Origin: a virus
Taxonomy: Duplodnaviria > Heunggongvirae > Uroviricota > Caudoviricetes
Reading direction: 5' to 3' (one strand)
Length of the DNA: 16,953 bases
IMG/VR virus record: IMGVR_UViG_2529293063_000008
This document shows, in pieces, positions 2,900-16,761 of this stretch; positions within the stretch are counted from its first letter, which is position 1, and each line of letters opens with the position of its first letter. The notes beneath the pieces are model-generated. The model was given only the letters and a program-made list of their open reading frames with translations, ran no database searches and was not told where the DNA came from. Made by a program: the position numbers and the translations under genes.

Positions 2900-3118
2900 T
2901 CAATGATGTAAACTCTCAACAGCAATAACTTGTTGGCAATTCTGAGCTATCTCCCGCGACATACTAACAAGTCGTGAAATCTCGCCAAGATGCAAGCTGG
3001 CTTCTGGAGAAGCCAGAGCAACGCTAACCAGATCCAAAACGGCGTCGATGTCTTTTAGGTTTGATCCGAGTTCTTCAAGAGTTGATACAGGTGCTTCAGT
3101 CATTGAATCTAATACCAT
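2900..3118 (-). CDS. Hypothetical 72-aa protein, candidate SOS-regulated gene
   Basis: ATG at 3116-3118; promoter region 3119-3187 contains a LexA-box match and an operator-like 17-mer. Protein MVLDSMTEAPVSTLEELGSNLKDIDAVLDLV... is acidic and has no motif I recognise. Confidence 0.5.
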   Translation of the reverse strand: MVLDSMTEAPVSTLEELGSNLKDIDAVLDLVSVALASPEASLHLGEISRLVSMSREIAQNCQQVIAVESLHH

Positions 3119-3142: not shown

Positions 3143-3158
3143 CTGTATAAAATTACAG
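3143..3158. promoter_or_regulatory. LexA (SOS) box CTGT-N8-ACAG
   Basis: TACTGTATAAAATTACAGGG (3141-3160) matches the E. coli SOS-box consensus TACTGTATATATATACAGTA in both CTGT/ACAG arms and the AT-rich centre; 25 nt upstream of the 72-aa gene start. Confidence 0.6.
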
Positions 3159-3185: not shown

Positions 3186-3187
3186 TT

Positions 3188-3342
3188 CAATGGATTAACT
3201 GGTTAAATATCTTTGTAGTCCGATACTTATGTTCCCTTCCTGCGCCTCGCCCAACCACTTCCAAAAGCCCATCACCACCATCAGAAAAGCTCTTTTCGCT
3301 CCGTTTTCGTATCATTTCAAAAAGCAATGCCTTTTTGTCCAT
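3188..3342 (-). CDS. Small hypothetical protein (51 aa), below the ORF-track size cutoff
   Basis: ATG at 3340-3342 with SD GGAGGGG 4-5 nt upstream; translation MDKKALLFEMIRKRSEKSFSDGGDGLLEVVGRGAGREHKYRTTKIFNQLIH; stop at 3188-3190. Confidence 0.3.
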
Positions 3343-3352
3343 TTACCCCTCC

Positions 3353-3364
3353 GTGACCAGTCAC
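3353..3364. repeat. Palindrome GTGACCAGTCAC (GTGACYRGTCAC family, copy 1)
   Basis: The same 12-mer occurs at 8592-8603 and as its reverse complement within CCCCGTGACTGGTCACGGGG at 13196-13215. Confidence 0.4.
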
Positions 3365-3687
3365 ACTTTGAGCGCAAGTTTCAGCCTCGTGGTTGTAAGG
3401 TGGCATGAGCCTTCACCATCAAAAATGCATTCTGAAACAGGCATTCTTTGACCACATCGCGGACAAGTAGTAGATAGCTGTTTCTGCAACTCCTTATAGT
3501 TTTTCCTGATCAGCAGTCCGATGACTTCGTTCTCTGAATATGGAACTCGCCCTGGTCTACGCAATACACAAATTTCCCCCAACATACGTAACTCGTCAGG
3601 TTCCAGAATCCAGTCCCGTCTTGATGTGCCTTCCTTCTTCAACCGTTCCCTGCGTCTCCTTTGCCGTTCTGCAGCTGTCAGCGCCAT
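3361..3687 (-). CDS. Small basic protein with C-terminal zinc-ribbon-like CxxC motif (108 aa)
   Basis: ATG at 3687 with SD AGGAGG; N-terminus AERQRRRRERLKKEG is highly basic; C-terminus has CPRCG...C.H. Confidence 0.55.
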   Translation of the reverse strand: MALTAAERQRRRRERLKKEGTSRRDWILEPDELRMLGEICVLRRPGRVPYSENEVIGLLIRKNYKELQKQLSTTCPRCGQRMPVSECIFDGEGSCHLTTTRLKLALKV

Positions 3688-5874: not shown

Positions 5875-6177
5875 TTAAATGGCGTTATTTTCATTTTCTT
5901 GTGCGACCGTGGTCGCACCCTCTCTAATTTCCAGATAACGCTTAATCCAAAGATTTTCTATATGCTTATTACCTGGCTGATTTGATAAATACCAATCGGC
6001 AATTACAGACTGCTTATTACTATCGGGTCGTGTCCTGTAACCGCAAGTTGGACACCAGATGACATATTCATTTCTTACCCCCGAATACCTTAATTCTGGC
6101 TTCGACGGTTTCCTGAACATAACTTGTTTACAAAGGCAGAATGGCACTTCCTGCCCGATGGCGTTTGATGATTTCAC
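5875..6177 (-). CDS. Zinc-finger protein, possibly Lar-family restriction-alleviation protein
   Basis: Two Cys pairs (PFCLC ... CPTCGYRTRP) about 27 aa apart, followed by ADWYLSN, in the pattern I recall for Lar-like proteins. Start set at GTG 6177 (SD GGAG) so that both Cys pairs are included; overlaps the upstream gene by about 50 nt. Confidence 0.4.
   Translation of the reverse strand: MKSSNAIGQEVPFCLCKQVMFRKPSKPELRYSGVRNEYVIWCPTCGYRTRPDSNKQSVIADWYLSNQPGNKHIENLWIKRYLEIREGATTVAQENENNAI
5900..5919. repeat. Centromere-like palindrome, copy 2
   Basis: TGTGCGACCGTGGTCGCACC; core identical to 1606-1625 and 8345-8360. Lies inside coding sequence at the junction of two small genes. Confidence 0.5.
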
Positions 6178-6838
6178 TGCGCTTCTCCGCCGCATTTAAT
6201 AATGCGGTTCGATTTAAGCTCAGACATCGCGACTTAATTAAAAGCCAGCGTTCTTTATAATCTTGTCTCCAGCTATCAATAGATATATTCAGTAGAAAAC
6301 TCAGATGCCTGTCCTGTTCTCTCTCATCAACTGCCTCAGCACACGTAAGTTCTGATTTAACCTGCTGTGCCGCGTAATAAATCAATTTCCGCATGGCTTT
6401 TTTCGTGGAGGCCTTCATTTTTTTAAAGCCGCCCCCCGAATGAGCAACCAGAAAATCAAGCCATAACCACTGACAAACAATCACATCATTGTTGTAGTCA
6501 GGCTTGCATCCGTAGCAATAATAAAGCCAGGCTGATTCCTCGTTATTCAACTGACAAATAGCCCTGCGCCAGCTGGCGCTCTGAAAATCAATATCAGTGA
6601 GCAACATTGATGATTGTTTAAATGTTTTCCCCTGGTGGAATCTAACCGGCTCAGCGGGAACGGACACTTCGTATGAGTTATCATCCCCCACACTGATTGA
6701 CCGGACTGGTTTATTGTTAAACCGTCCTGATCTACCGAGACGCATCTGCTCAAGCTGGACCTCCAGAATGCCACGCTGGCGATAATGAACATCAGCCAAT
6801 GCCGTAGAGACGCAGCTGCGTATATACTCAAGCTCCAC
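6128..6838 (-). CDS. Hypothetical regulatory protein immediately downstream of cro (position of a cII- or Q-like early regulator)
   Basis: 236 aa; GTG start at 6838 overlapping the cro-like stop by 11 nt (ATG 6745 is an alternative); Cys-rich segment WLYYCYGCKPDYNNDVIVCQW. Function not assignable by eye. Confidence 0.5.
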   Translation of the reverse strand: MELEYIRSCVSTALADVHYRQRGILEVQLEQMRLGRSGRFNNKPVRSISVGDDNSYEVSVPAEPVRFHQGKTFKQSSMLLTDIDFQSASWRRAICQLNNEESAWLYYCYGCKPDYNNDVIVCQWLWLDFLVAHSGGGFKKMKASTKKAMRKLIYYAAQQVKSELTCAEAVDEREQDRHLSFLLNISIDSWRQDYKERWLLIKSRCLSLNRTALLNAAEKRSEIIKRHRAGSAILPL

Positions 6839-7049
6839 GCTTACGACTCTCCTTAATCGACTGCTTTACCCGCCGAGTTGTAAAGTCACTCTTCAGCTTG
6901 TAAGCAGTACGAACTTCAATATCGCTTTGCCGCAATGAAGGAATCTCTCCAGCGGTTAACCATTGGTAAACAGCTCCGGGTGTTACACCTACCCCTGCCG
7001 CTGCTTTTTCAACACTGCCAAAGTGGCGAATAAGTTCTTCTGGTTTCAT
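6828..7049 (-). CDS. Cro-like HTH regulator
   Basis: Start moved to ATG 7049 (MKPEELIRHFGSVEKAAAGVGVTPGAVYQWL...); HTH motif; divergent from the repressor gene across an operator-containing intergenic region. Confidence 0.65.
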   Translation of the reverse strand: MKPEELIRHFGSVEKAAAGVGVTPGAVYQWLTAGEIPSLRQSDIEVRTAYKLKSDFTTRRVKQSIKESRKRGA

Positions 7050-7080
7050 GTTGTTATTATAAACAATAAACAATAATTAA

Positions 7081-7134
7081 AGCCAGCTATAATAAATAAA
7101 TTTTATAGCCAGCTATAAGAAGATCATTTATGAT
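7081..7134. promoter_or_regulatory. Immunity-switch operator/promoter region with two operator copies
   Basis: AGCCAGCTATAA at 7081-7092 and 7109-7120; the second sits in TATAGC-CA-GCTATA with perfect 6-bp arms (7103-7116). TATGAT (7129-7134) lies 6 nt before the repressor ATG, suggesting a leaderless repressor mRNA. Confidence 0.5.
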
Positions 7135-7140
7135 TACAGT

Positions 7141-7737
7141 ATGAAAACACGAGGCGAACGACTGAAAGCACGCCGTTTAGAGATGAAGCTGACGTTGCGA
7201 GAAGTTGCTGAGGCTGTCGATATCTCTATAGCAGGCGTCCAAAACTTAGAACGTGGCGACGTAATGCCGTCACTGGAGATAGGTATTGCCCTGGCTAAGT
7301 GCTTACGCAAGCCAGTACATTGGGTGCTATATGGGACAGAATATGACCCTGATCGCATTCCTGTTATTGGCACAACTGAAAGTGGGCCTGATGAAGAGTG
7401 GAAGCCGGGACAGGTTCCAAATACTGAGCGATTCCTGCCATTCATCAGCCAGCGCAATACTGTGTATGCGTTAACTATCAGCAATCTTACGCAGGGAAAC
7501 TATCAGCCAGGCGATTTTCTCCTGGTCGATTCTGCGCTGGAACTGGTCCCCGGCGAGGATGTTCTGGTTCGTGATACTGCAGGAAATATCACTATCCAGC
7601 GCCTAGCCCGTTTTGATGATGAAAATTACTATCTGGATGGAACAAACTCACAACGCGCTATCTTCAGGAAAAGCGATCTTGAATTTGTTCACCAAATAGT
7701 CGGAACGATCAAATCATTCATGGTTGAGGGTAGATGA
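7141..7737 (+). CDS. CI-like prophage repressor (N-terminal HTH, C-terminal S24-like domain that appears to lack the catalytic lysine)
   Basis: 198 aa; HTH LTLREVAEAVDISIAGVQNLERG; C-terminal GDFLLVDS...GEDVLVR...ITIQRLAR resembles LexA/CI (GDLLAV...VTVKRL) but has Q where the catalytic K is expected. No Ala-Gly in the linker. Confidence 0.8.
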   Translation: MKTRGERLKARRLEMKLTLREVAEAVDISIAGVQNLERGDVMPSLEIGIALAKCLRKPVHWVLYGTEYDPDRIPVIGTTESGPDEEWKPGQVPNTERFLPFISQRNTVYALTISNLTQGNYQPGDFLLVDSALELVPGEDVLVRDTAGNITIQRLARFDDENYYLDGTNSQRAIFRKSDLEFVHQIVGTIKSFMVEGR

Positions 7738-7982: not shown

Positions 7983-10900
7983 ATGACATTAAACGATTTC
8001 TATGCGGATCGCTTTGGCAGCGATCCGTTCTCGCTAATTGAAGCAGCACGGGATGAACTAACCGAGCTGGCACAGATGGCTGGTATCAACTGGCCTGCCT
8101 GTTCCGACAACATCCAACTCAACCCTCGCGGGGGTGTTGAGCGTTACTCTTCATACAATAAAACATCTCCAGAAGCTCTCGAGAAGAGCCTCAAAGGACG
8201 CGTAGAAATTTACTCCCGGCTGGAACACAGCAAAGGGATTGATTACCCGTTCATTAACTTCGTCCATAAAGGCAGCGATGCTGGCTCATGGAGCGGTTTC
8301 TCCTTCCTGTTTTCTGAATATCGCCGTGAGCAACAACGGAATAATGCGACCGTGGTCGCACAACCGGAAGAAGAACGGGCAAGAATAGAACGTCAGGCCG
8401 AAGCACGTCGTCGCCGTGAAGAACAAAAACGAATTAATGACCTGAAAAACAACCAAATTGACCATGAACGTTTGCTGGGATGGCTGGCATTTCACAGCGC
8501 GTGGGAACATGCTCCTGCAGAAGACGGCTCATGGCCATATGCGATTAAAAAAGGTATTCGTGACGTTTTTAATTCGTGTGATGTGCGTCGCGTGACCAGT
8601 CACGACAGCGCAAAATGGAGCAGGGGGCCAACCACGTATATGGCTATCCCTCTGGCTCACCTGGACGGTCGTTACGATGGTCGTATTGTGGGTTGGCAGC
8701 GAATCGACAAACAAGGTGGAAAATACCAGACCAGCGCAGTAACCAGCGGCGATTTCGTCGGTGCCTGCTTTGTTATCGGTGAGCTGAAAGGGGCGCAAAA
8801 CATCGCTGTTACAGAAGGTTTTGCTACTGGTGCATCCATCTGGCTTGCCACGAAAAAAGATAAACGCTTTGACGCTGTGGTTGTCGCTGTATCCGCTAAC
8901 AACATGGTTCATGTTGTGGAACAACTGGTAAACATGTACCCGGCGGCAAAAATCACCTGCGCACTGGATAATGACCGGAAATCTGCCACAGAAGGAAAAG
9001 GGAATACCGGCCTGCGGACTGGCTATGAAATCTTATCGAAATTCAACGATGTCCGCTGCGTCTATCCAACTTTTGAAGACGATCCGCAAATGGAGTGCAG
9101 TGACTTCAACGACCTGCACAAACTACGTGGACTTCGTGAAACAGCACGTCAACTATTTGCAACAGCAAACCGCCTGAAAACTGGTACTGATTTGCTATCT
9201 CTGACGCTCAACCGCCTGAAGACAATTAAGCGGGATAACCGTCGTACTTTTGCCAAAGAGCTGCTGAGAGCGGTGGATATTGGCATGCTAACCTGTCCGG
9301 TTCCTAACAGTCCGTCAGATTTATTTAACATGTTCTGCATCGTTCTGCGTGAAATGGGACTGGAAAATATCTATCGCGCTACGGTAAAAGACCACATTGC
9401 CCGTCGCCTGAATAAAAAGTGCCGTATTGCCCAGGCTCCGCGCTCTTTCAGCGAACGCATAACTGATCCCAATAAACGCCCTCAACATATCACATATAAG
9501 CGTTTTGAAACTTCGGTAATGACCGATGATGTCCTGAAGTACGTGCAATCACTACAGGGGATAGTCATCGTCCGTGCTGGTATGGGTTCCGGCAAATCTA
9601 CTGGATTGTTACGACCGTTAATGCATAGCTCAGAACGTGGTATCTCTGTTGCTCACCGTGTCTCCCTTATTGGCGGCCTGTGGGAAATGATGACAGAAGG
9701 AAAAGGTGTAAAAGCCGATATCCTGCACTATCAGGATCCTGGCTATCAGGAAATAGCTCCATACGCCAGTAAACTGACCATCTGCATAAACTCGATTGTT
9801 AAAAACTGCTGGCAACCGTTGATGCGCCAGCACGACTATTTTGGCTTTGACGAGGCCACACAAGGGCTACGTGCCGTTCTTTCCGGTCGGGCTATGGAAA
9901 ACCCGGTGGCTGTATTCAATACGCTAATTGACGCGCTGGCCAGAACAGAACAACACCCAATCATGGTGGATGCTGATGCGAATGATCTGCTGGTTGACCT
10001 GGCTGAACTGGCTATGAAACGCCGTGAAGAACTAGGTTTACCGGCATGGCTGCAGATCCACGTAATTGAATTACCTGTTGATGTTCGCAACCGCGAAACA
10101 GGTGAGCCAATCCGGGTTTTTTATACAGAAAAAGATCGCATCATGACCGAGGTGGTGAAAGCTGTATCGGATGGCGAAAAAATCATGTTGGCCACCGACA
10201 GCTCCACCTTTGCAGAAGATGTGACAGCCACCCTGAGAATGCATTTTCCTGGTAAGAAATTTCTGTGTGTAAACCAGAAAAACAAACCAGAGCCAGAAGT
10301 TGAAGCATTTACCAATCAACCGAAAAAGATGGTCAAAAAATACGACGGCCTGATTTATAGCCCGTCTATTTCATCCGGCGTGTCGATTGAGCAAAAACAT
10401 TTTGACCGTCATTTCGGCATGTTCTGTGGTGAAGTTGTACCCAGCGACGCAGTGCAAATGCTACGCCGCGACCGTACAGCAAAAGAATTTATTATCGGCT
10501 TTGATAAAGCTCGTGCAAAACGTGAAACTGACCCGCAAAAAATAGAACGAGCATTCGCCCAGGCATTGCTTGCTACCGCAGGTATGAACGGTGAACTGAC
10601 GGATGTCGTTTTCGATGGCGACCGTATATCAATGGGGGTGGCCAATACCGACTTTACCAGGATGAAAATTAAAGCAGCCGCTATTGAAGCGACTGCGCGT
10701 AACGACTACGCCAGCAACATGATCTGCATCATGCACAGCGACGGTTATAAGGTATCGCCGCTGGCCACCGATTATGCTGCGAATGATATCGGTAAAGAGC
10801 TGCGTAAAGAAGCGCGGGATATTGTGTGGGAACAGACACTGGATCTGCATCTCAATACAGAAACTCCACAAGAATCAGAGCGTGAAGAACTGCTAAAAAA

Positions 10901-11978
10901 ACGCGCGCTGACGCTTGAAGAACAGGCAAAACTTGTCCGCTGGGATATTGAAAACGAACTGAAACTACCGGTTGAAGAAGGCACGCTGAAATTCTATTTC
11001 GATGGTGCTCGAGACAAAGTTCGCCGCTATGAAACAATGCTTTTAGATGAGGTAACAGCTCGTCGTTACGACCGGGAAGAAGCAGCCATCAATTTTACCT
11101 ACGCATACCGTCAGGCGGGACAGTGGCAATATTTTGTAGTGACCGCGATGACTCGCGAGCAGGCTGATGATGTCTTTAAAACTAAATTCCCTGGAATAAT
11201 CGATCACAAGGTAAAAGCTACTCCTACTGTTGAAGTCGGGGCGCGCGGTTTCTATGCGCTTAAATCAGCAACTCTCCGGCAGTACTTTATCGACTGCGGT
11301 ATCAACCCTGAGACTATGACCGGCGAGGCGACTCAGGAGCGTCTCAAATTTGCTCGAGATAACCTCATGACAGCCGAACGCCGTGACCTGTTGAATAACG
11401 TTCTGCACATTGGTGGTTTTATGACGCCAAAAGGGAAGCCTAAAGTGCCGGAAGCGTTGTTTAAAAACATTTGCGACTCTCTTGGCCTTAAAACAGGTAA
11501 ACGTCGCGGCAGAGACGGCGATAAGCGTCCAACCTTGCGTTTTGTTGAGCCTGAATCAGCGGCATTTATGCTGGATATTCTTGCTCAGCGTCAGAAAGAT
11601 GGCCTAACCCTGAAAACGCGTAAAGCCGAGAAGACCGCCATCGAAATGGATCGCGATTTGGATCTCAATATATATATGGATGATAAAACGCGATCCACAA
11701 ACGAGCAGGTTCAAAACGCCCCTCATTCAGTAATTTCTGAGGCTTTGGCTGTGTTGCCAGTGGTTGTACCTGAGTCCTGGGCGATGAGTGCGCTTTCCGG
11801 TGAGGAGCTGGCCACTATGTCATCATGGTCATCAGCCAGCATAGCTATGACGTTTGCATCTCTGTACCTCACAGAGTTCATGGATCACTTATCCAGCAAT
11901 GAACTGCGGCGGTTACGTGAATACATTACCGGGAATAGCCCATGCAGCTACGAAGAGCAGGGCGCTTTCTATGGGTAA
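7983..11978 (+). CDS. repA: Multidomain replication protein: primase (TOPRIM) fused to a P-loop helicase/NTPase, N15 RepA-like
   Basis: 1331 aa; TOPRIM-like IAVTEGFATGASIWLA ... ITCALDND; Walker A VRAGMGSGKST; size matches my memory of N15 RepA. Confidence 0.85.
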   Translation: MTLNDFYADRFGSDPFSLIEAARDELTELAQMAGINWPACSDNIQLNPRGGVERYSSYNKTSPEALEKSLKGRVEIYSRLEHSKGIDYPFINFVHKGSDAGSWSGFSFLFSEYRREQQRNNATVVAQPEEERARIERQAEARRRREEQKRINDLKNNQIDHERLLGWLAFHSAWEHAPAEDGSWPYAIKKGIRDVFNSCDVRRVTSHDSAKWSRGPTTYMAIPLAHLDGRYDGRIVGWQRIDKQGGKYQTSAVTSGDFVGACFVIGELKGAQNIAVTEGFATGASIWLATKKDKRFDAVVVAVSANNMVHVVEQLVNMYPAAKITCALDNDRKSATEGKGNTGLRTGYEILSKFNDVRCVYPTFEDDPQMECSDFNDLHKLRGLRETARQLFATANRLKTGTDLLSLTLNRLKTIKRDNRRTFAKELLRAVDIGMLTCPVPNSPSDLFNMFCIVLREMGLENIYRATVKDHIARRLNKKCRIAQAPRSFSERITDPNKRPQHITYKRFETSVMTDDVLKYVQSLQGIVIVRAGMGSGKSTGLLRPLMHSSERGISVAHRVSLIGGLWEMMTEGKGVKADILHYQDPGYQEIAPYASKLTICINSIVKNCWQPLMRQHDYFGFDEATQGLRAVLSGRAMENPVAVFNTLIDALARTEQHPIMVDADANDLLVDLAELAMKRREELGLPAWLQIHVIELPVDVRNRETGEPIRVFYTEKDRIMTEVVKAVSDGEKIMLATDSSTFAEDVTATLRMHFPGKKFLCVNQKNKPEPEVEAFTNQPKKMVKKYDGLIYSPSISSGVSIEQKHFDRHFGMFCGEVVPSDAVQMLRRDRTAKEFIIGFDKARAKRETDPQKIERAFAQALLATAGMNGELTDVVFDGDRISMGVANTDFTRMKIKAAAIEATARNDYASNMICIMHSDGYKVSPLATDYAANDIGKELRKEARDIVWEQTLDLHLNTETPQESEREELLKKRALTLEEQAKLVRWDIENELKLPVEEGTLKFYFDGARDKVRRYETMLLDEVTARRYDREEAAINFTYAYRQAGQWQYFVVTAMTREQADDVFKTKFPGIIDHKVKATPTVEVGARGFYALKSATLRQYFIDCGINPETMTGEATQERLKFARDNLMTAERRDLLNNVLHIGGFMTPKGKPKVPEALFKNICDSLGLKTGKRRGRDGDKRPTLRFVEPESAAFMLDILAQRQKDGLTLKTRKAEKTAIEMDRDLDLNIYMDDKTRSTNEQVQNAPHSVISEALAVLPVVVPESWAMSALSGEELATMSSWSSASIAMTFASLYLTEFMDHLSSNELRRLREYITGNSPCSYEEQGAFYG
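8345..8360. repeat. Centromere-like palindrome, copy 3 (inside repA coding sequence)
   Basis: TGCGACCGTGGTCGCA exact; encodes ...NATVVAQ... within repA. Confidence 0.5.
8592..8603. repeat. Palindrome GTGACCAGTCAC (copy 2, inside repA)
   Basis: Flanked as CGTGACCAGTCACG; same family as 3353-3364 and 13196-13215. Confidence 0.35.
11648..11696. other. Candidate internal replication origin within the 3' part of repA
   Basis: 8-bp inverted repeat GGATCGCG / CGCGATCC (11648-11655, 11689-11696) flanks the AT-rich TCAATATATATATGGATGATAAAA and includes three GATC sites. I recall the N15 ori mapping inside the 3' part of repA. Confidence 0.3.
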
Positions 11979-13134: not shown

Positions 13135-13195
13135 TGCCCTCCAACAGCTGATCAGGTTCTGATCAGTTAGTAAAGCAAACTATAAAAACACCTGT

Positions 13196-13215
13196 CCCCG
13201 TGACTGGTCACGGGG
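13196..13215. repeat. Perfect hairpin-forming palindrome CCCCGTGA-CTGG-TCACGGGG (GTGACYRGTCAC family, copy 3)
   Basis: 8-bp GC-rich arms with a 4-nt loop; lies 20 bp upstream of a candidate promoter for the antisense-RNA/antirepressor operon. Confidence 0.45.
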
Positions 13216-13235
13216 TAAAATGTCTTTTCAAATTA

Positions 13236-13265
13236 TTGACGTGTGCGTCGTTTTGACGGTAAAGT
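13236..13265 (+). promoter_or_regulatory. Candidate sigma70 promoter of the antirepressor (immI-like) operon
   Basis: TTGACG (13236-13241), 18-nt spacer, TAAAGT (13260-13265). Confidence 0.3.
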
Positions 13266-13378
13266 TACTTCGCTGCGGTAAATCCCGTAGCCGGGACTCT
13301 CAACCCCGAAATCCGAACGACGCACAACACGCGCCAGCGTGTTTTTTTGTGTGTATGAGCCTGCGCATATCCGAATTA

Positions 13379-13460
13379 TGGTGGCTCAGGTGGGGCAGCC
13401 GAAAGGCTGGCCGGTGTCGTTTGGGCCGGTGTTGAGAACCCCGCTTGGGCTACCACCCCA
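13379..13460 (+). ncRNA. Candidate c4-type antisense RNA (P1 c4 / N15 CA RNA analogue); boundaries approximate
   Basis: About 80-nt GC-rich segment closed by GGTGG (13380-13384) / CCACC (13453-13457) with internal hairpins. Loop GGTGTTGAGAACCCC (13428-13442) is complementary to ACTCTCAACCCC (13296-13307) and ATTCTCAACTC (13466-13476), which flank it upstream of the icd-like start. Confidence 0.4.
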
Positions 13461-13514
13461 TAGAGATTCTCAACTCTGGTGGTAGCACTGTTTTACCAAA
13501 CAAGAGTGCATACC

Positions 13515-13679
13515 ATGTTCAAATTCAAATTTGCGGCAGTCGTTCGCACAGACAAAAAGTCACACATCCATCATCTTTCCACCATCGCGTCATCTGAACG
13601 GGAAGCTCGTCGCCAGTTCGCCAGCCGGTTTGTCCTGGTATTGTCTGCCCGTATTCCGGTGCGCGAGGTGGCTGCATGA
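13515..13679 (+). CDS. Icd-like small protein (first gene of the antirepressor operon)
   Basis: ATG 13515 (MFKFKFAAVVRTDKKSHIHHLSTIASSEREARRQFASRFVLVLSARIPVREVAA); the longest ORF begins at GTG 13479. Stop overlaps the next start (ATGA). Resemblance to Icd-like proteins is from memory. Confidence 0.5.
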   Translation: MFKFKFAAVVRTDKKSHIHHLSTIASSEREARRQFASRFVLVLSARIPVREVAA

Positions 13680-13909
13680 ATCAGGTAAAAATGAACACTG
13701 TTGGCCTGCTGGAATCGTTGGATGAACGTCTGGCTCAGGTCTATGCGCTTGTGTCATCCGCCCATCGTACAGTCTCCAGCTGTGAGGCGTCGATTTATCT
13801 CTCAGAAGCCGGGAAGCTCCTTCAAATTGCGTGTGAGTTGACACACAAAGCACAGGGGTATTCAGCATCTCTCTCGTCGCAATTGCAGCACAATAAGGAG
13901 GCCAAATGA
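13676..13909 (+). CDS. Hypothetical protein (77 aa), translationally coupled middle gene of the antirepressor operon
   Basis: SD GAGGTGG 6 nt upstream; ATGA overlaps at both ends. Confidence 0.55.
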   Translation: MNQVKMNTVGLLESLDERLAQVYALVSSAHRTVSSCEASIYLSEAGKLLQIACELTHKAQGYSASLSSQLQHNKEAK

Positions 13910-14688
13910 GCGCGTTAGCTGTATTTTCGTTTCAGGAAGAGCATCAGGTTCGTGTAGTGATGATTAACGGCGATCCGTGGTTTGTAGCGGCTGATGTTTG
14001 TAATGCCATCGGGATTATCAATCATCGTGATGCTGTTGGTAAGTTGGATGAAGACGAAAAGGGGGTCGGTTCAACAGACACCCTTGGAGGTAAACAGGGA
14101 GTGACAATTATTAACGAATCCGGCCTCTATACCCTAATCCTCCGCTGCCGTGACGCGGTGAAGCAAGGCACAACAGCTTGGCGGTTTCGCAAATGGGTAA
14201 CGAACGAAGTCTTGCCCTCTATTCGCAAAAATGGAGAGTACGTTTACGTCGAGCCAGAGCCAATGCGAGCAGCAGAGCCGTTGAACTGGAGGCAGAAAGA
14301 GTATCTGCGAGGGCTGATTAACGATATTGCACAAAGTTTTCAATACCGAAATGCCTGGATTAGCGGTGTATGGTTGGCTTTGCGTCGGGCGTGTCGTAAT
14401 CCATCCCCGAACCCCATAACTGTTGATGATTTGCCAGCAATTACGGCAGAACTGCGCCGGATTTTGACGGCTGCTGAGTCGGCATTGGGGAACATGCGCA
14501 CGTATGAACGAGAGTTGTTGCGTGATGTTGTTCGTGGTGGTAGGCGGAGTATGTCGTGTGGTGATTTGCCCATCACCGATATCAACTCTGATCTGGAAAA
14601 GGCGTTACCCGCGCATTTTGAACTGGCAGTTCAAAAACTTGAGCAGTTATCCGCGCAGCTAAAGCCAGCAGAAATCACCAATAAATAG
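13906..14688 (+). CDS. Phage antirepressor with N-terminal Bro-N/AntA-type domain
   Basis: 260 aa; SD AAGGAGG; N-terminal FSFQEEHQVRVVMINGDPWFVAADVCNAIGIINHRDAVGKLDEDEKG...IINESGLYTLILRCR...KWVTNEVLPSIRKNGEY matches the antirepressor signature as I remember it. Confidence 0.8.
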   Translation: MSALAVFSFQEEHQVRVVMINGDPWFVAADVCNAIGIINHRDAVGKLDEDEKGVGSTDTLGGKQGVTIINESGLYTLILRCRDAVKQGTTAWRFRKWVTNEVLPSIRKNGEYVYVEPEPMRAAEPLNWRQKEYLRGLINDIAQSFQYRNAWISGVWLALRRACRNPSPNPITVDDLPAITAELRRILTAAESALGNMRTYERELLRDVVRGGRRSMSCGDLPITDINSDLEKALPAHFELAVQKLEQLSAQLKPAEITNK

Positions 14689-14859: not shown

Positions 14860-16761
14860 TTAACCGAAATATGTCAGCCATGCTAACTGCATTGCTGACA
14901 TGGGGCTGTTTGCACTGCCGGACCACGCATAATTCTGGCCATTATAATGAAACTCAACAACGTATGAGCCATCACCAATATTTCTCACCGGCTTAAATAC
15001 CGGCTTAGATACAGGCGAAGAAGGTGCAGGCGGTTGCTGTTCTTCTACGCTCTCTTCCTCTTCCTCTTCCTCTTCCTCTATCTCAATTTCGTCGTCATCC
15101 AGATCGTCATCCTCTGACAATTCATCCGCCAGTTCAGGTATTGCTTCCAGTTCTTCTTCGTCAGGCATAACGATTTCTGGAGTATCTATTTTCAGTTGCC
15201 ATTGTCCGTTTTCGCCAACAAATTGCCCCAGAGCATCAGCAGCAAATTCCAGGTATCGACTAATCATTGTTGGGCTAAATTTGAACGCTCTTAGAGTGCT
15301 GTTCGTGATTTTTATAGAGGGGTCCTGCTCTACCAGCTGCTTAACTGTGTTATGCAGACGAACCCCGGCATCTCCTCTGGCGAATCCAGGCATTTCGTCA
15401 TCAAGCTGCTGCAATGCTTCCAGCCTGGTATTTTCGTTTCCAGTATTTGGCCTCCATGTCTTTGAGAAGTTGGCCAGCTTGAATTGCTTATAGTGTAATT
15501 GAGTGTTTTCATCGTCATGGCCTAAAATTTCCATAAAGAAAACATCTTCATCTACGTTTTTCCAACGAGGATCTACGCGGAAAAACATTTCATACGCAAT
15601 ACGGGCATAAATAGCACGACTATCTTTATAAACACGGCGGTCATCTTTGAAAAATGATTTAACCCACGGGTTAAAAGCCTTTGCTAATATGGCATTAATA
15701 CGTCCGTTTTCAGAGCGTGTGTCGTTATCTCCATAACCTTTAACGACATCATCAAAATCAGATGCTGCTGGGCATGAGCGAAGTACATTTATTAAATAAA
15801 CAAATGTTTTTGCTTCGCATAATGTATATATTTTTCTGGTTATATCATCAGAAGTTCTTTTTTTAGCTTGGCCTAAAAAATCAACGGTATACTTACCAGA
15901 AACAGTAAATGTACCTTGATACATAATCTCAATCATTCGTCTTCCTGACAATGCAGCAAGTGCAAATGCCAAAGGAGCCATACCTGAACGAGTGTTTAGA
16001 TTATTTAATGTAGCAGGGCTATTTATAATATCGTAAATAGCTTGCATATATTTAGGGTAATCAATGACCACCACGTTACGTTTCTTATTGTGCAGAACGT
16101 CCGCCCATCGTTGCTGGATAGATGCACGTTCGGCAGGGCTTAGTTGAAGATGATAGAGAATCTCATGGTTAACTTTTAGCTGATTCAACTCCTCAAGTAA
16201 GGCAGATCCTTGCTGTAGTAATTTATATAAATAATCGCGCTTATCTTTCCAGTTATCGCTAGTTAAATCAGAAATGGCGAATTGCCACTCTTTATATTTA
16301 TTTGATAATTTCAATAACTTATTATGACTTTTGTTATCGCCAATTCTGATATTAGATAAATCTTCTGATAGAGGGAGAATTAATTTTAATTTTGCCTGTA
16401 AAGCTGACATTCTCTGGCGAATATCGGCAGCAGGTAGAGAAAGCCATGACAATAGCTCCTCATTATATAAAGGATACTTTTCAGATAGGCGATGTATATT
16501 TTTTTCAAAGCTATGATGAAGTTTATCATCAAACCGTTTTCTGGCCCTGCTCATATAGGCATTGAATGTGTTGGCTGTAATTCTTTTTTCTAATCCTTTC
16601 CCCCTAAACTTTCGCTTGTCATTAAATAATGCATTTTTAAATTTTAATGCAACAGCCTTTATTTTTTTTGTTTTCTCCCCTTGAGGACGGTCAGAGTTAT
16701 CTATTGACTCAACATCGCTAACAAGTGAGTTTATTAATTCACCGATTTTTACTTTGCTCAT
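14860..16761 (-). CDS. telN: Protelomerase (telomere resolvase), TelN-like
   Basis: 633 aa; N-terminus MSKVKIGELIN..., length and an acidic Glu/Asp-rich stretch before the C-terminus match my memory of N15 TelN. SD AGGAGAGG. The gene abuts the terminal half-palindrome. Confidence 0.8.
   Translation of the reverse strand: MSKVKIGELINSLVSDVESIDNSDRPQGEKTKKIKAVALKFKNALFNDKRKFRGKGLEKRITANTFNAYMSRARKRFDDKLHHSFEKNIHRLSEKYPLYNEELLSWLSLPAADIRQRMSALQAKLKLILPLSEDLSNIRIGDNKSHNKLLKLSNKYKEWQFAISDLTSDNWKDKRDYLYKLLQQGSALLEELNQLKVNHEILYHLQLSPAERASIQQRWADVLHNKKRNVVVIDYPKYMQAIYDIINSPATLNNLNTRSGMAPLAFALAALSGRRMIEIMYQGTFTVSGKYTVDFLGQAKKRTSDDITRKIYTLCEAKTFVYLINVLRSCPAASDFDDVVKGYGDNDTRSENGRINAILAKAFNPWVKSFFKDDRRVYKDSRAIYARIAYEMFFRVDPRWKNVDEDVFFMEILGHDDENTQLHYKQFKLANFSKTWRPNTGNENTRLEALQQLDDEMPGFARGDAGVRLHNTVKQLVEQDPSIKITNSTLRAFKFSPTMISRYLEFAADALGQFVGENGQWQLKIDTPEIVMPDEEELEAIPELADELSEDDDLDDDEIEIEEEEEEEEESVEEQQPPAPSSPVSKPVFKPVRNIGDGSYVVEFHYNGQNYAWSGSANSPMSAMQLAWLTYFG

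Follow-up and report, generated by a model that had tools for sequence, protein, structure and literature searches.

The dispersed palindrome GTGAC-NN-GTCAC of an N15-like phage-plasmid is a conserved DNA element and the probable operator of gp46, a predicted ribbon-helix-helix protein

The 12-bp palindrome GTGAC-NN-GTCAC occurs three times (sites A, B and C; Table 1) in the 16,953-nucleotide stretch of viral DNA analyzed here (IMG/VR record IMGVR_UViG_2529293063_000008; "the window"), and comparison with relatives indicates that it is a real, conserved and functional DNA element. It is probably the recognition site (operator) of the gp46 homologue, a protein with a predicted ribbon-helix-helix (RHH) fold whose gene ends within site A, and surveys of phage sequences show the same pair of gene and site in a wide range of unrelated temperate phages, whose hosts are enteric bacteria and Vibrio. 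A previous interpretation made from the window alone (the sequence-only reading) had suggested that a second site-specific DNA-binding protein acts on the element. This suggestion is supported by linkage of gp46 to the motif across phages, by the RHH model and by covariation between the motif center and the predicted DNA-reading strand of the protein.

The Escherichia phages YDC107_1 and PhiR46_1 match the window at 96 to 97% identity, and parts of N15 and phiKO2 match it at ~75% (megablast). The window is therefore the plasmid maintenance and early region of an N15-like linear phage-plasmid, reversed relative to the N15 map. N15 serves as the reference for linear phage-plasmids and is the origin of linear cloning vectors in wide use. 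Between cro and cB, TTATAGCCAGCTATAA (7103 to 7118) looks like the N15 CB/Cro operator palindrome, and operators are annotated at the homologous place in the N15 record. The "complete genome" of YDC107_1 (CP025712.1, L003) contains the telN-repA region twice, inverted around 36.7 kb and with frameshifted copies, which looks like assembly read-through of a hairpin telomere; because of this inverted duplicate, five motif copies are present in that record.

Table 1. Coordinates of motif copies, genes, RNAs and other features in the window
Feature	Coordinates	Strand	Remarks
Site A	3353-3364	minus	GTGACTGGTCAC on minus strand; bases 2-4 (TGA) are the gp46 homologue stop codon (G-TGA-C)
Site B	8592-8603	plus	repA codons GTG ACC AGT CAC = V-T-S-H (204-207)
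Site C	13200-13211	plus	GTGACTGGTCAC; central CA/TG orientation opposite to A and B
Half-site CGTGAC in ATTCGTGACGT	8556-8566	plus	Inside repA, 27 bp upstream of site B
gp46 homologue (candidate binder)	3361-3687	minus	108 aa
gp47 homologue	3187-3342	minus	51 aa here; 80 aa in YDC107_1 and PhiR46_1
Q	6128-6838	minus	
cro	6828-7073	minus	
cB	7141-7737	plus	
repA	7983-11978	plus	
Anti-repressor operon	~13236 to 14688	plus	
Promoter Pa	13236-13265	plus	Sigma-70-like (TTGACG-18-TAAAGT)
isrK-like leader RNA	13272-13347	plus	Rfam, 54.9 bits
Terminator	13326-13343	plus	isrK-like RNA ends there
C4 antisense RNA	13374-13460		Rfam, 71.8 bits
telN	14860-16761	minus	
SopB-type palindromes	1605-1626, 5901-5918, 8345-8360		(C)TGTGCGACC-GT-GGTCGCACAG; from the palindrome listing of the window

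Exact matches to GTGACYRGTCAC in the whole window are confined to the three sites; sites A and B both read GTGACCAGTCAC, and site C reads its reverse complement. No copy of GTGACYRGTCAC appeared in any of 200 dinucleotide-preserving shuffles of the window. The looser pattern GTGACNNGTCAC has a chance expectation of about one per Mb, or 0.016 per window (Poisson P, ~7e-7), and GTGAC-NN-GTCAC is absent from three enterobacterial phage genomes without gp46 (128 kb). The number of copies is thus far beyond chance, as previously claimed.

Site A had been placed at the 3' boundary of the early operon, but it lies instead at an internal gene junction, where it overlaps the stop codon of the gp46 homologue and precedes the next gene. 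On the minus strand it is followed by GGAGGGG (Shine-Dalgarno) and then by the ATG of the gp47 homologue at 3342, and this arrangement of stop codon overlap and next gene recurs in N15 and all N15-like loci. The assignment of site B to repA holds. Also confirmed is the position of site C, the reverse-complement copy, inside a perfect hairpin upstream of the anti-repressor promoter: it forms the core of a perfect palindrome of 20 bp, CCCCGTGACTGGTCACGGGG (13196 to 13215), and, given the location of Pa, lies 24 nt upstream of the -35 element of the anti-repressor operon promoter, with its center at ~-67 from the start. The start of the isrK-like RNA coincides with the transcription start predicted from Pa, and the C4 antisense RNA, icd, gp31 and the Bro-N anti-repressor gene are located downstream of Pa, the isrK-like RNA and its terminator.

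Two further interpretations of the site C region were rejected. The ATG of a possible gene following site C (13220 to 13435) is not kept in relatives, and the frame overlaps Pa, the isrK-like RNA and the C4 RNA. LexA control can be discounted at site C, which has no LexA box; the sole CTGT-N8-ACAG in the window is at 3143 to 3158. This sequence, CTGTATAAAATTACAG, is the only perfect LexA box pattern in the window and lies 195 bp from site A. Just downstream of it, a 72-aa minus-strand open reading frame (ORF; 2900 to 3118) matches PHROG 6301, with a weak match to an "anti-repressor" PHROG, and may encode an SOS-controlled small anti-repressor.

Conservation in related phage-plasmids, which had been proposed as a check, is borne out by three sites at homologous positions in every full-length N15-like relative. 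In N15, GTGACYRGTCAC occurs three times in the whole 46-kb genome: at the gene 46/47 junction, within repA and in the interval between gene 33 and the anti-repressor operon. PhiR46_1 likewise has three copies, and its whole genome contains no further copy even with one mismatch. A RepA-based search of IMG/VR yielded 44 N15-like loci (RepA identity, 78 to 100%), and every locus of sufficient length has exactly three copies, with fewer only in short loci. The copies lie at ~-5 kb, at +610 nt of repA and at ~+5 kb, and the distances from A to B and from B to C differ by kilobases among relatives. The 12-mer is invariant in these loci except at the second central base (CA to CC), the flanks at site A fall to 56% identity, and orientation is constant, with A and B one way and C opposite. 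The spacing between site C and the -35 element is constant in all relatives, while the bases between them vary. Directly upstream of site C, a block (GTAAAGCAAACTATAAAAAC, 13170 to 13189) that holds TATAAA and TATAGT, -10-like hexamers on both strands, shows conservation nearly at the level of the motif in N15-like relatives.

Within repA, all synonymous positions of GTG ACC AGT CAC and of the preceding CGC are fixed (31 unique sequences); nearby codons whose amino acids are conserved show free synonymous variation. Across the first 1.5 kb of repA, no invariant run is longer than the 17 nt around site B (CGCGTGACCAGTCACGA, 8589 to 8605; 30 unique sequences; minimum identity, 72.5%). The second-longest invariant run in the repA 5' alignment is ATTCGTGACGT, which contains a half-site and whose codons ATT CGT GAC have synonymous positions that are invariant in all relatives; this half-site is possibly an auxiliary contact. 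Together, the invariant core, divergent flanks and fixed synonymous sites in repA show selection on the DNA itself. An internal promoter or terminator at site B was rejected, as a scan found neither near the site.

These data also bear on the proposal that the 12-mer is the boundary or junction of a mobile gene module, i.e., a recombination sequence or the end of a gp46 cassette. Such a role would fit the copy over the stop codon, which ends a gene found in many unrelated genome contexts, and the variable gene content of the regions adjoining sites A and C. However, site B is located in the middle of a conserved repA gene with unchanged gene content on both sides, no matching copy exists at the 5' end of gp46, and a module boundary leaves the palindromy, the synonymous site invariance and the covariation with the protein (see below) unexplained. 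This explanation is therefore considered very improbable.

A shared structural element, such as a hairpin, a cruciform or a piece of an intrinsic terminator that requires no dedicated protein, was the second possibility raised by the sequence-only reading, and it is not supported by folding analysis. Site C does lie in a stable hairpin (z scores of -2.7 on the plus strand and -4.9 on the minus strand, where a U-run follows), but sites A and B fold no better than shuffled sequences (z scores of -0.2 and -1.0), and the CCCC/GGGG arms that extend the site C core are not kept in relatives. A hairpin of only 5 bp around a 2-nt loop would not be viable. Terminator scans detected none at sites A or B, and there is no stable stem-loop with a U-run common to all copies. 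Furthermore, it is the sequence of the arms, and not mere pairing potential, that is conserved, with no compensatory changes. Other phages give some indication of a structural role: the motif itself forms the stem in a few distant gp46 loci, annotated terminators adjoin the phiV10 copies, and 37 of 68 motifs in distant gp46 loci (described below) are within 60 nt of a terminator-like hairpin, compared with 7% of random positions, an association confounded by lineage and by the location of most phage non-coding DNA at operon ends. A structural element without a dedicated protein is considered highly improbable.

The association with terminators is closest in the epsilon15-like phages (phiV10, L050/L056; PAT1, L051; and L102-L136), where each of three copies is 5 to 25 nt from an intrinsic terminator. 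One copy lies between the gp46 homologue (the last early gene) and terS, another follows terL and the third follows the last structural gene; the phiV10 and PAT1 records carry no annotation of a Q-like antiterminator. Because the sites abut terminators, a role at operon boundaries is possible in these phages. A reading of the motif as a promoter, with GTGACA as the -35 element, was considered by eye for the epsilon15-like phages and rejected, as it does not extend to the N15-like sites.

The identity of the probable binder is indicated by the phages that lack the motif and by those that share it. PY54 has repA, cB, cro, Q and telN in common with the window, and it contains neither the motif nor homologues of gp46, gp47, gp50, the toxin-antitoxin pair, gp31 or the Bro-N anti-repressor, a set in which gp46 is the gene that ends within the motif; lambda and P2 similarly lack both the gp46 gene and the motif. 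Searches of GenBank phages (tblastn) found gp46 homologues with 30 to 43% identity in phages of other types, namely, the epsilon15-like podoviruses phiV10, PAT1 and epsilon15, Pantoea phage AH07 (where the homologue is annotated as a "RepB-like replication regulatory protein"), Pectobacterium phage ZF40, P2-like Yersinia phages and many Vibrio phages. GTGAC-NN-GTCAC is present in every homologue-bearing phage examined: PAT1 (three copies, one over the homologue stop codon), AH07 (two copies, one over the homologue stop), ZF40 (three copies, one 2 bp past the homologue stop), Vibrio phage K308 (three copies), YenM_42.18 (one copy) and phiV10 (two exact copies and, at the homologue stop, a one-mismatch copy that spans the record ends).

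A profile-based scan of IMG/VR identified 36 further distant gp46 loci (558 kb), which contain 54 motifs compared with 0.53 expected. The homologue's stop codon begins at the second base of a motif in 29 of the 36 loci, ~100-fold over chance. Five loci have no copy at the stop codon, and four of these five have copies elsewhere. When the 14-mer CGTGACATGTCACG alone was used as the query, a gp46-like ORF was present in 19 of the 80 short fragments retrieved; the remainder include chance and coding occurrences, and this diluted scan thus supports enrichment only, not exclusivity. Some palindromes in viral contigs away from gp46 encode V-T-C-H of CxxCxGxG zinc fingers. In addition, a fragment without a gp46 gene (L158) has three GTGAC-NN-GTCAC copies (4755, 5056 and 5092) in one 329-aa replication gene ORF, which may be iteron-like repeats of an origin inside the ORF, and the palindrome is therefore not exclusive to gp46 phages. 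In five loci (L101, L108, L109, L110 and L115), the stop codon of the gp46 homologue lies inside a different palindrome, CTGAC-AGTATGA-GTCAG. Copies of GTGACATGTCAC are found ~7 kb upstream in L101, L108, L110 and L115 and also ~5 kb downstream in L108, L110 and L115; the 5-kb fragment L109 has none.

Another phage protein that travels with gp46 (the winged-helix-like gp47, gp50, gp31 or a helix-turn-helix antitoxin) might bind the motif instead, as the candidate genes are also found in N15-like loci and are absent from PY54. Among these, gp47 starts 10 nt from site A, and its 80-aa relatives contain a segment resembling a winged helix by eye. Nevertheless, none of the candidates accompanies the motif in epsilon15-like, AH07, ZF40, P2-like or Vibrio phages, where the neighbors of gp46 differ, and the gp47 homologue of the window has lost the helix-turn-helix-like segment while all three sites are intact. 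Binding by one of these proteins is accordingly judged highly unlikely. The loss results from an internal replacement in the window gp47 that removes FVFASMLAFDVGLNSRIVKRMLDSAVRTGLLEKV, a winged helix-turn-helix-like segment.

The gp46 homologue, whose N15 counterpart is NP_046942, is assigned to PHROG 536 ("transcriptional regulator"), its sole family match. It has no Pfam or NCBIfam match at an E value below 0.01, placing it outside the curated RHH families, and sequence searches found no relative in the PDB. Its structural model, on which the predicted RHH fold rests, consists of an N-terminal basic helix (AERQRRRRERL), an RHH core, a Cys-rich CxxC...C...C segment and a further helix. The core has the element order of an RHH protein (β-strand, helix A, turn and helix B), with the strand appearing as coil in the model, which is of the monomer only. 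A weak hint of a TraR/DksA-type zinc finger was also obtained (E value, 0.5). A profile search gathered 1010 protein clusters, none with a Pfam domain. Among the 120 clusters listed, almost all source names are "hypothetical protein," and the genera are Escherichia, Salmonella, Citrobacter, Enterobacter, Cronobacter, Pantoea, Klebsiella and Pectobacterium. The invariant residues of the family (A6, R8, R13, R43 and R44) are located in the N-terminal helix and an RRPGR loop.

The center of the motif varies with the predicted DNA-reading strand of gp46. Homologues with the strand RRDW(I/V)LE (the N15-like clade) have CA or CC at the center of all sites (~215 CA, 13 CC and 0 AT), and those with (R/K)K(L/I/M)ELxLD have AT, sometimes AG or AC. 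As this covariation rests mainly on two large clades and is confounded by phylogeny, it is suggestive, and the sole clearly independent case is L114, which is epsilon15/AH07-like overall yet has the strand ERRIDLPLD and CA at two of its three sites. The combination of an invariant protein helix and loop with invariant DNA arms is, equally suggestively, what would fit an RHH dimer with its ribbon on the center and helix on the arms.

The motif must be distinguished from other short palindromes of these phages and their hosts. Its description as a second palindrome family, apart from a first, is upheld, since its arms and spacing are unlike those of the SopB-type sites. N15 has four SopB-type sites (33481, 35932, 41126 and 45563), spread over the right arm, and the copy in the repA gene of the window is 246 bp upstream of site B. 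The N15 SopB sites (IR1 to IR4) resemble the motif in being dispersed short palindromes of the same genome that are conserved in relatives, with one copy in repA, but they are 16 bp long (TGCGACC-NN-GGTCGCA) and are bound by a ParB-type helix-turn-helix protein encoded on the other arm. Relative to the F sopC core, each half-site of the N15 sequence has one changed position (PMC2910045). PY54 has eight F-type SopB palindromes (TGGGACC-NN-GGTCCCA) genome-wide and no GTGAC-NN-GTCAC. Identity of the motif with the SopB centromere was rejected, given the separate families within the window and the retention of SopB-type sites without the motif in PY54.

Two host sites, matS and the SlmA site, share bases with the motif, and a conserved Enterobacterales/Vibrio host protein (MatP, SlmA or an unknown factor) might bind the sites and position or protect phage DNA, with gp46 as a neighbor or modulator. 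The half-sites GTGAC and GTCAC are those of matS, the SlmA site has the outer GTGA...TCAC in common with the motif (PMC3116907, PMC8669397), and all hosts belong to the MatP/SlmA clade (Escherichia, Salmonella, Klebsiella, Yersinia, Pectobacterium, Pantoea and Vibrio). A host factor would also naturally explain the invariance of the motif across very different phages. However, matS (GTGACRNYGTCAC) is a 13-bp site, GTGAC-RNY-GTCAC, whereas the motif has 12 bp; every site has a 2-bp rather than a 3-bp spacer, and neither the window nor N15 contains a 13-bp matS. matS is significantly avoided in Escherichia and Salmonella prophages, with none in those analyzed (PMC3603311), which argues indirectly against host MatP on the motif, and GTGAC-NN-GTCAC is enriched in integrated epsilon15-like and P2-like prophages. 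The SlmA site (GTGAGTACTCAC) is also a 12-bp palindrome and matches the motif at the four outermost bases of either side (PMC3116907), but it has G5/C8 where all motif copies have C5/G8, and the copies therefore depart from the SlmA consensus at these symmetric positions. Moreover, SlmA is a TetR family host protein, whereas the motif tracks the presence or absence of a phage gene (PY54, lambda and P2 being without both), and a host factor would not predict covariation of the motif center with the gp46 strand. Binding by a host factor is thus regarded as unlikely. Homology of the gp46 family to MatP itself was rejected (hhalign probability, 0.1%); gp46 lacks the four-helix bundle and coiled coil of MatP and has a Cys-rich tail instead.

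Other parallels to gp46 are the classical RHH repressors (Arc, Mnt, CopG, MetJ, AmrZ, TraM and the ParD/MazE antitoxins), with which it shares the predicted fold and a short symmetric operator. The MetJ box (AGACGTCT) resembles the inner TGAC..GTCA of the motif, and AmrZ has an N-terminal extension that adds contacts. Classical RHH operators, most often tandem boxes, are found at the promoter that drives the operon of the regulator itself, whereas the gp46 sites are single 12-bp palindromes 4 to 7 kb apart, one of them over the gene's own stop codon. The Cys-rich C-terminal tail of gp46 is absent from the classical proteins.

If gp46 is the binder, as is probable, a dimer would bind the 12-bp palindrome, the invariant N-terminal helix and RRPGR loop holding the outer arms GTGAC and GTCAC and the two-stranded β-ribbon of the dimer reading the central bases. 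Genes 39 to 47 of N15 constitute the rightward early operon, which is CB repressed in the lysogen and in which gene 46 lies downstream of cro and Q; as a consequence of this repression, gp46 synthesis would be restricted to the time after infection or induction. The protein would then be present on all three sites: the one over its own stop codon, which precedes the ribosome-binding site of the next gene; the one in the 5' third of repA; and the one located ~67 bp before the anti-repressor operon start. The most likely outcome would be transcriptional control of neighboring units, in which gp46 might repress, form a roadblock or set a boundary and possibly bridge the sites. For the physical binding, the timing of expression and the regulatory outcome alike, we infer the role of gp46 from the comparisons above. 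The fixed 24-nt spacing of site C, despite variable bases, points to a positional relation with the anti-repressor promoter, and site B and its half-site, which are without a nearby promoter, suggest a roadblock or a bridging partner.

Several features argue against gp46 as the regulator that uses this operator. Retention of the same operator across proteins with 30 to 40% identity, which also sets the gp46 family apart from classical RHH regulators, is unusual for phage regulators, and a conserved host factor would account for it more easily. Autoregulation does not classically operate from a site at the 3' end of the gene for the regulator, and -67 is a non-canonical position for an activator.

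A different role for the same protein, which appears doubtful, is that gp46 and its sites form a phage-borne, matS-like system for DNA organization or boundary formation. Here, a MatP-like RHH protein would act on a near-matS site that is shifted by 1 bp and ignored by host MatP, and gp46 would bridge dispersed sites or mark operon ends beside terminators. In epsilon15-like phages, a gp46 switch might pass early transcription through the site-terminator pair into the late genes, and in N15 gp46 might rewire repA and the anti-repressor operon at the turn from plasmid prophage to lytic growth. If true, gp46 would exemplify a class of phage developmental regulators that is widespread, comprises more than 1000 protein clusters and has gone undescribed.

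In the searchable literature, beyond whose reach lie older N15, phiKO2 and PY54 papers in subscription journals, neither the motif nor the function of gp46 was found described, and a literature search for the 12-mers returned only unrelated primer sequences. On the most likely reading, that of gp46 as an RHH regulator with a palindromic operator, the general type is known, and its distinguishing features are the dispersed sites, the copy over the gene's own stop codon and the retention of the operator across unrelated phage lineages. The near-identity of the motif to matS, with a spacer one base shorter, would make the pair a clean system for studying how host and phage recognition are separated by spacing. 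In vectors derived from N15, recoding repA with synonymous codons would abolish site B and the nearby SopB site.

If gp46 binds the motif, N15 would have a third layer of sequence-specific control, beside the CB/Cro operators and the SopB centromeres, that touches the replication gene and the anti-repressor promoter. The pair of gene and site is present in epsilon15-like, P2-like and other temperate phages of Escherichia, Salmonella, Klebsiella, Yersinia, Pectobacterium, Pantoea and Vibrio, and settling the binding and function of gp46 would give an annotation to more than 1000 protein clusters, a family that has no Pfam domain and is mostly "hypothetical."
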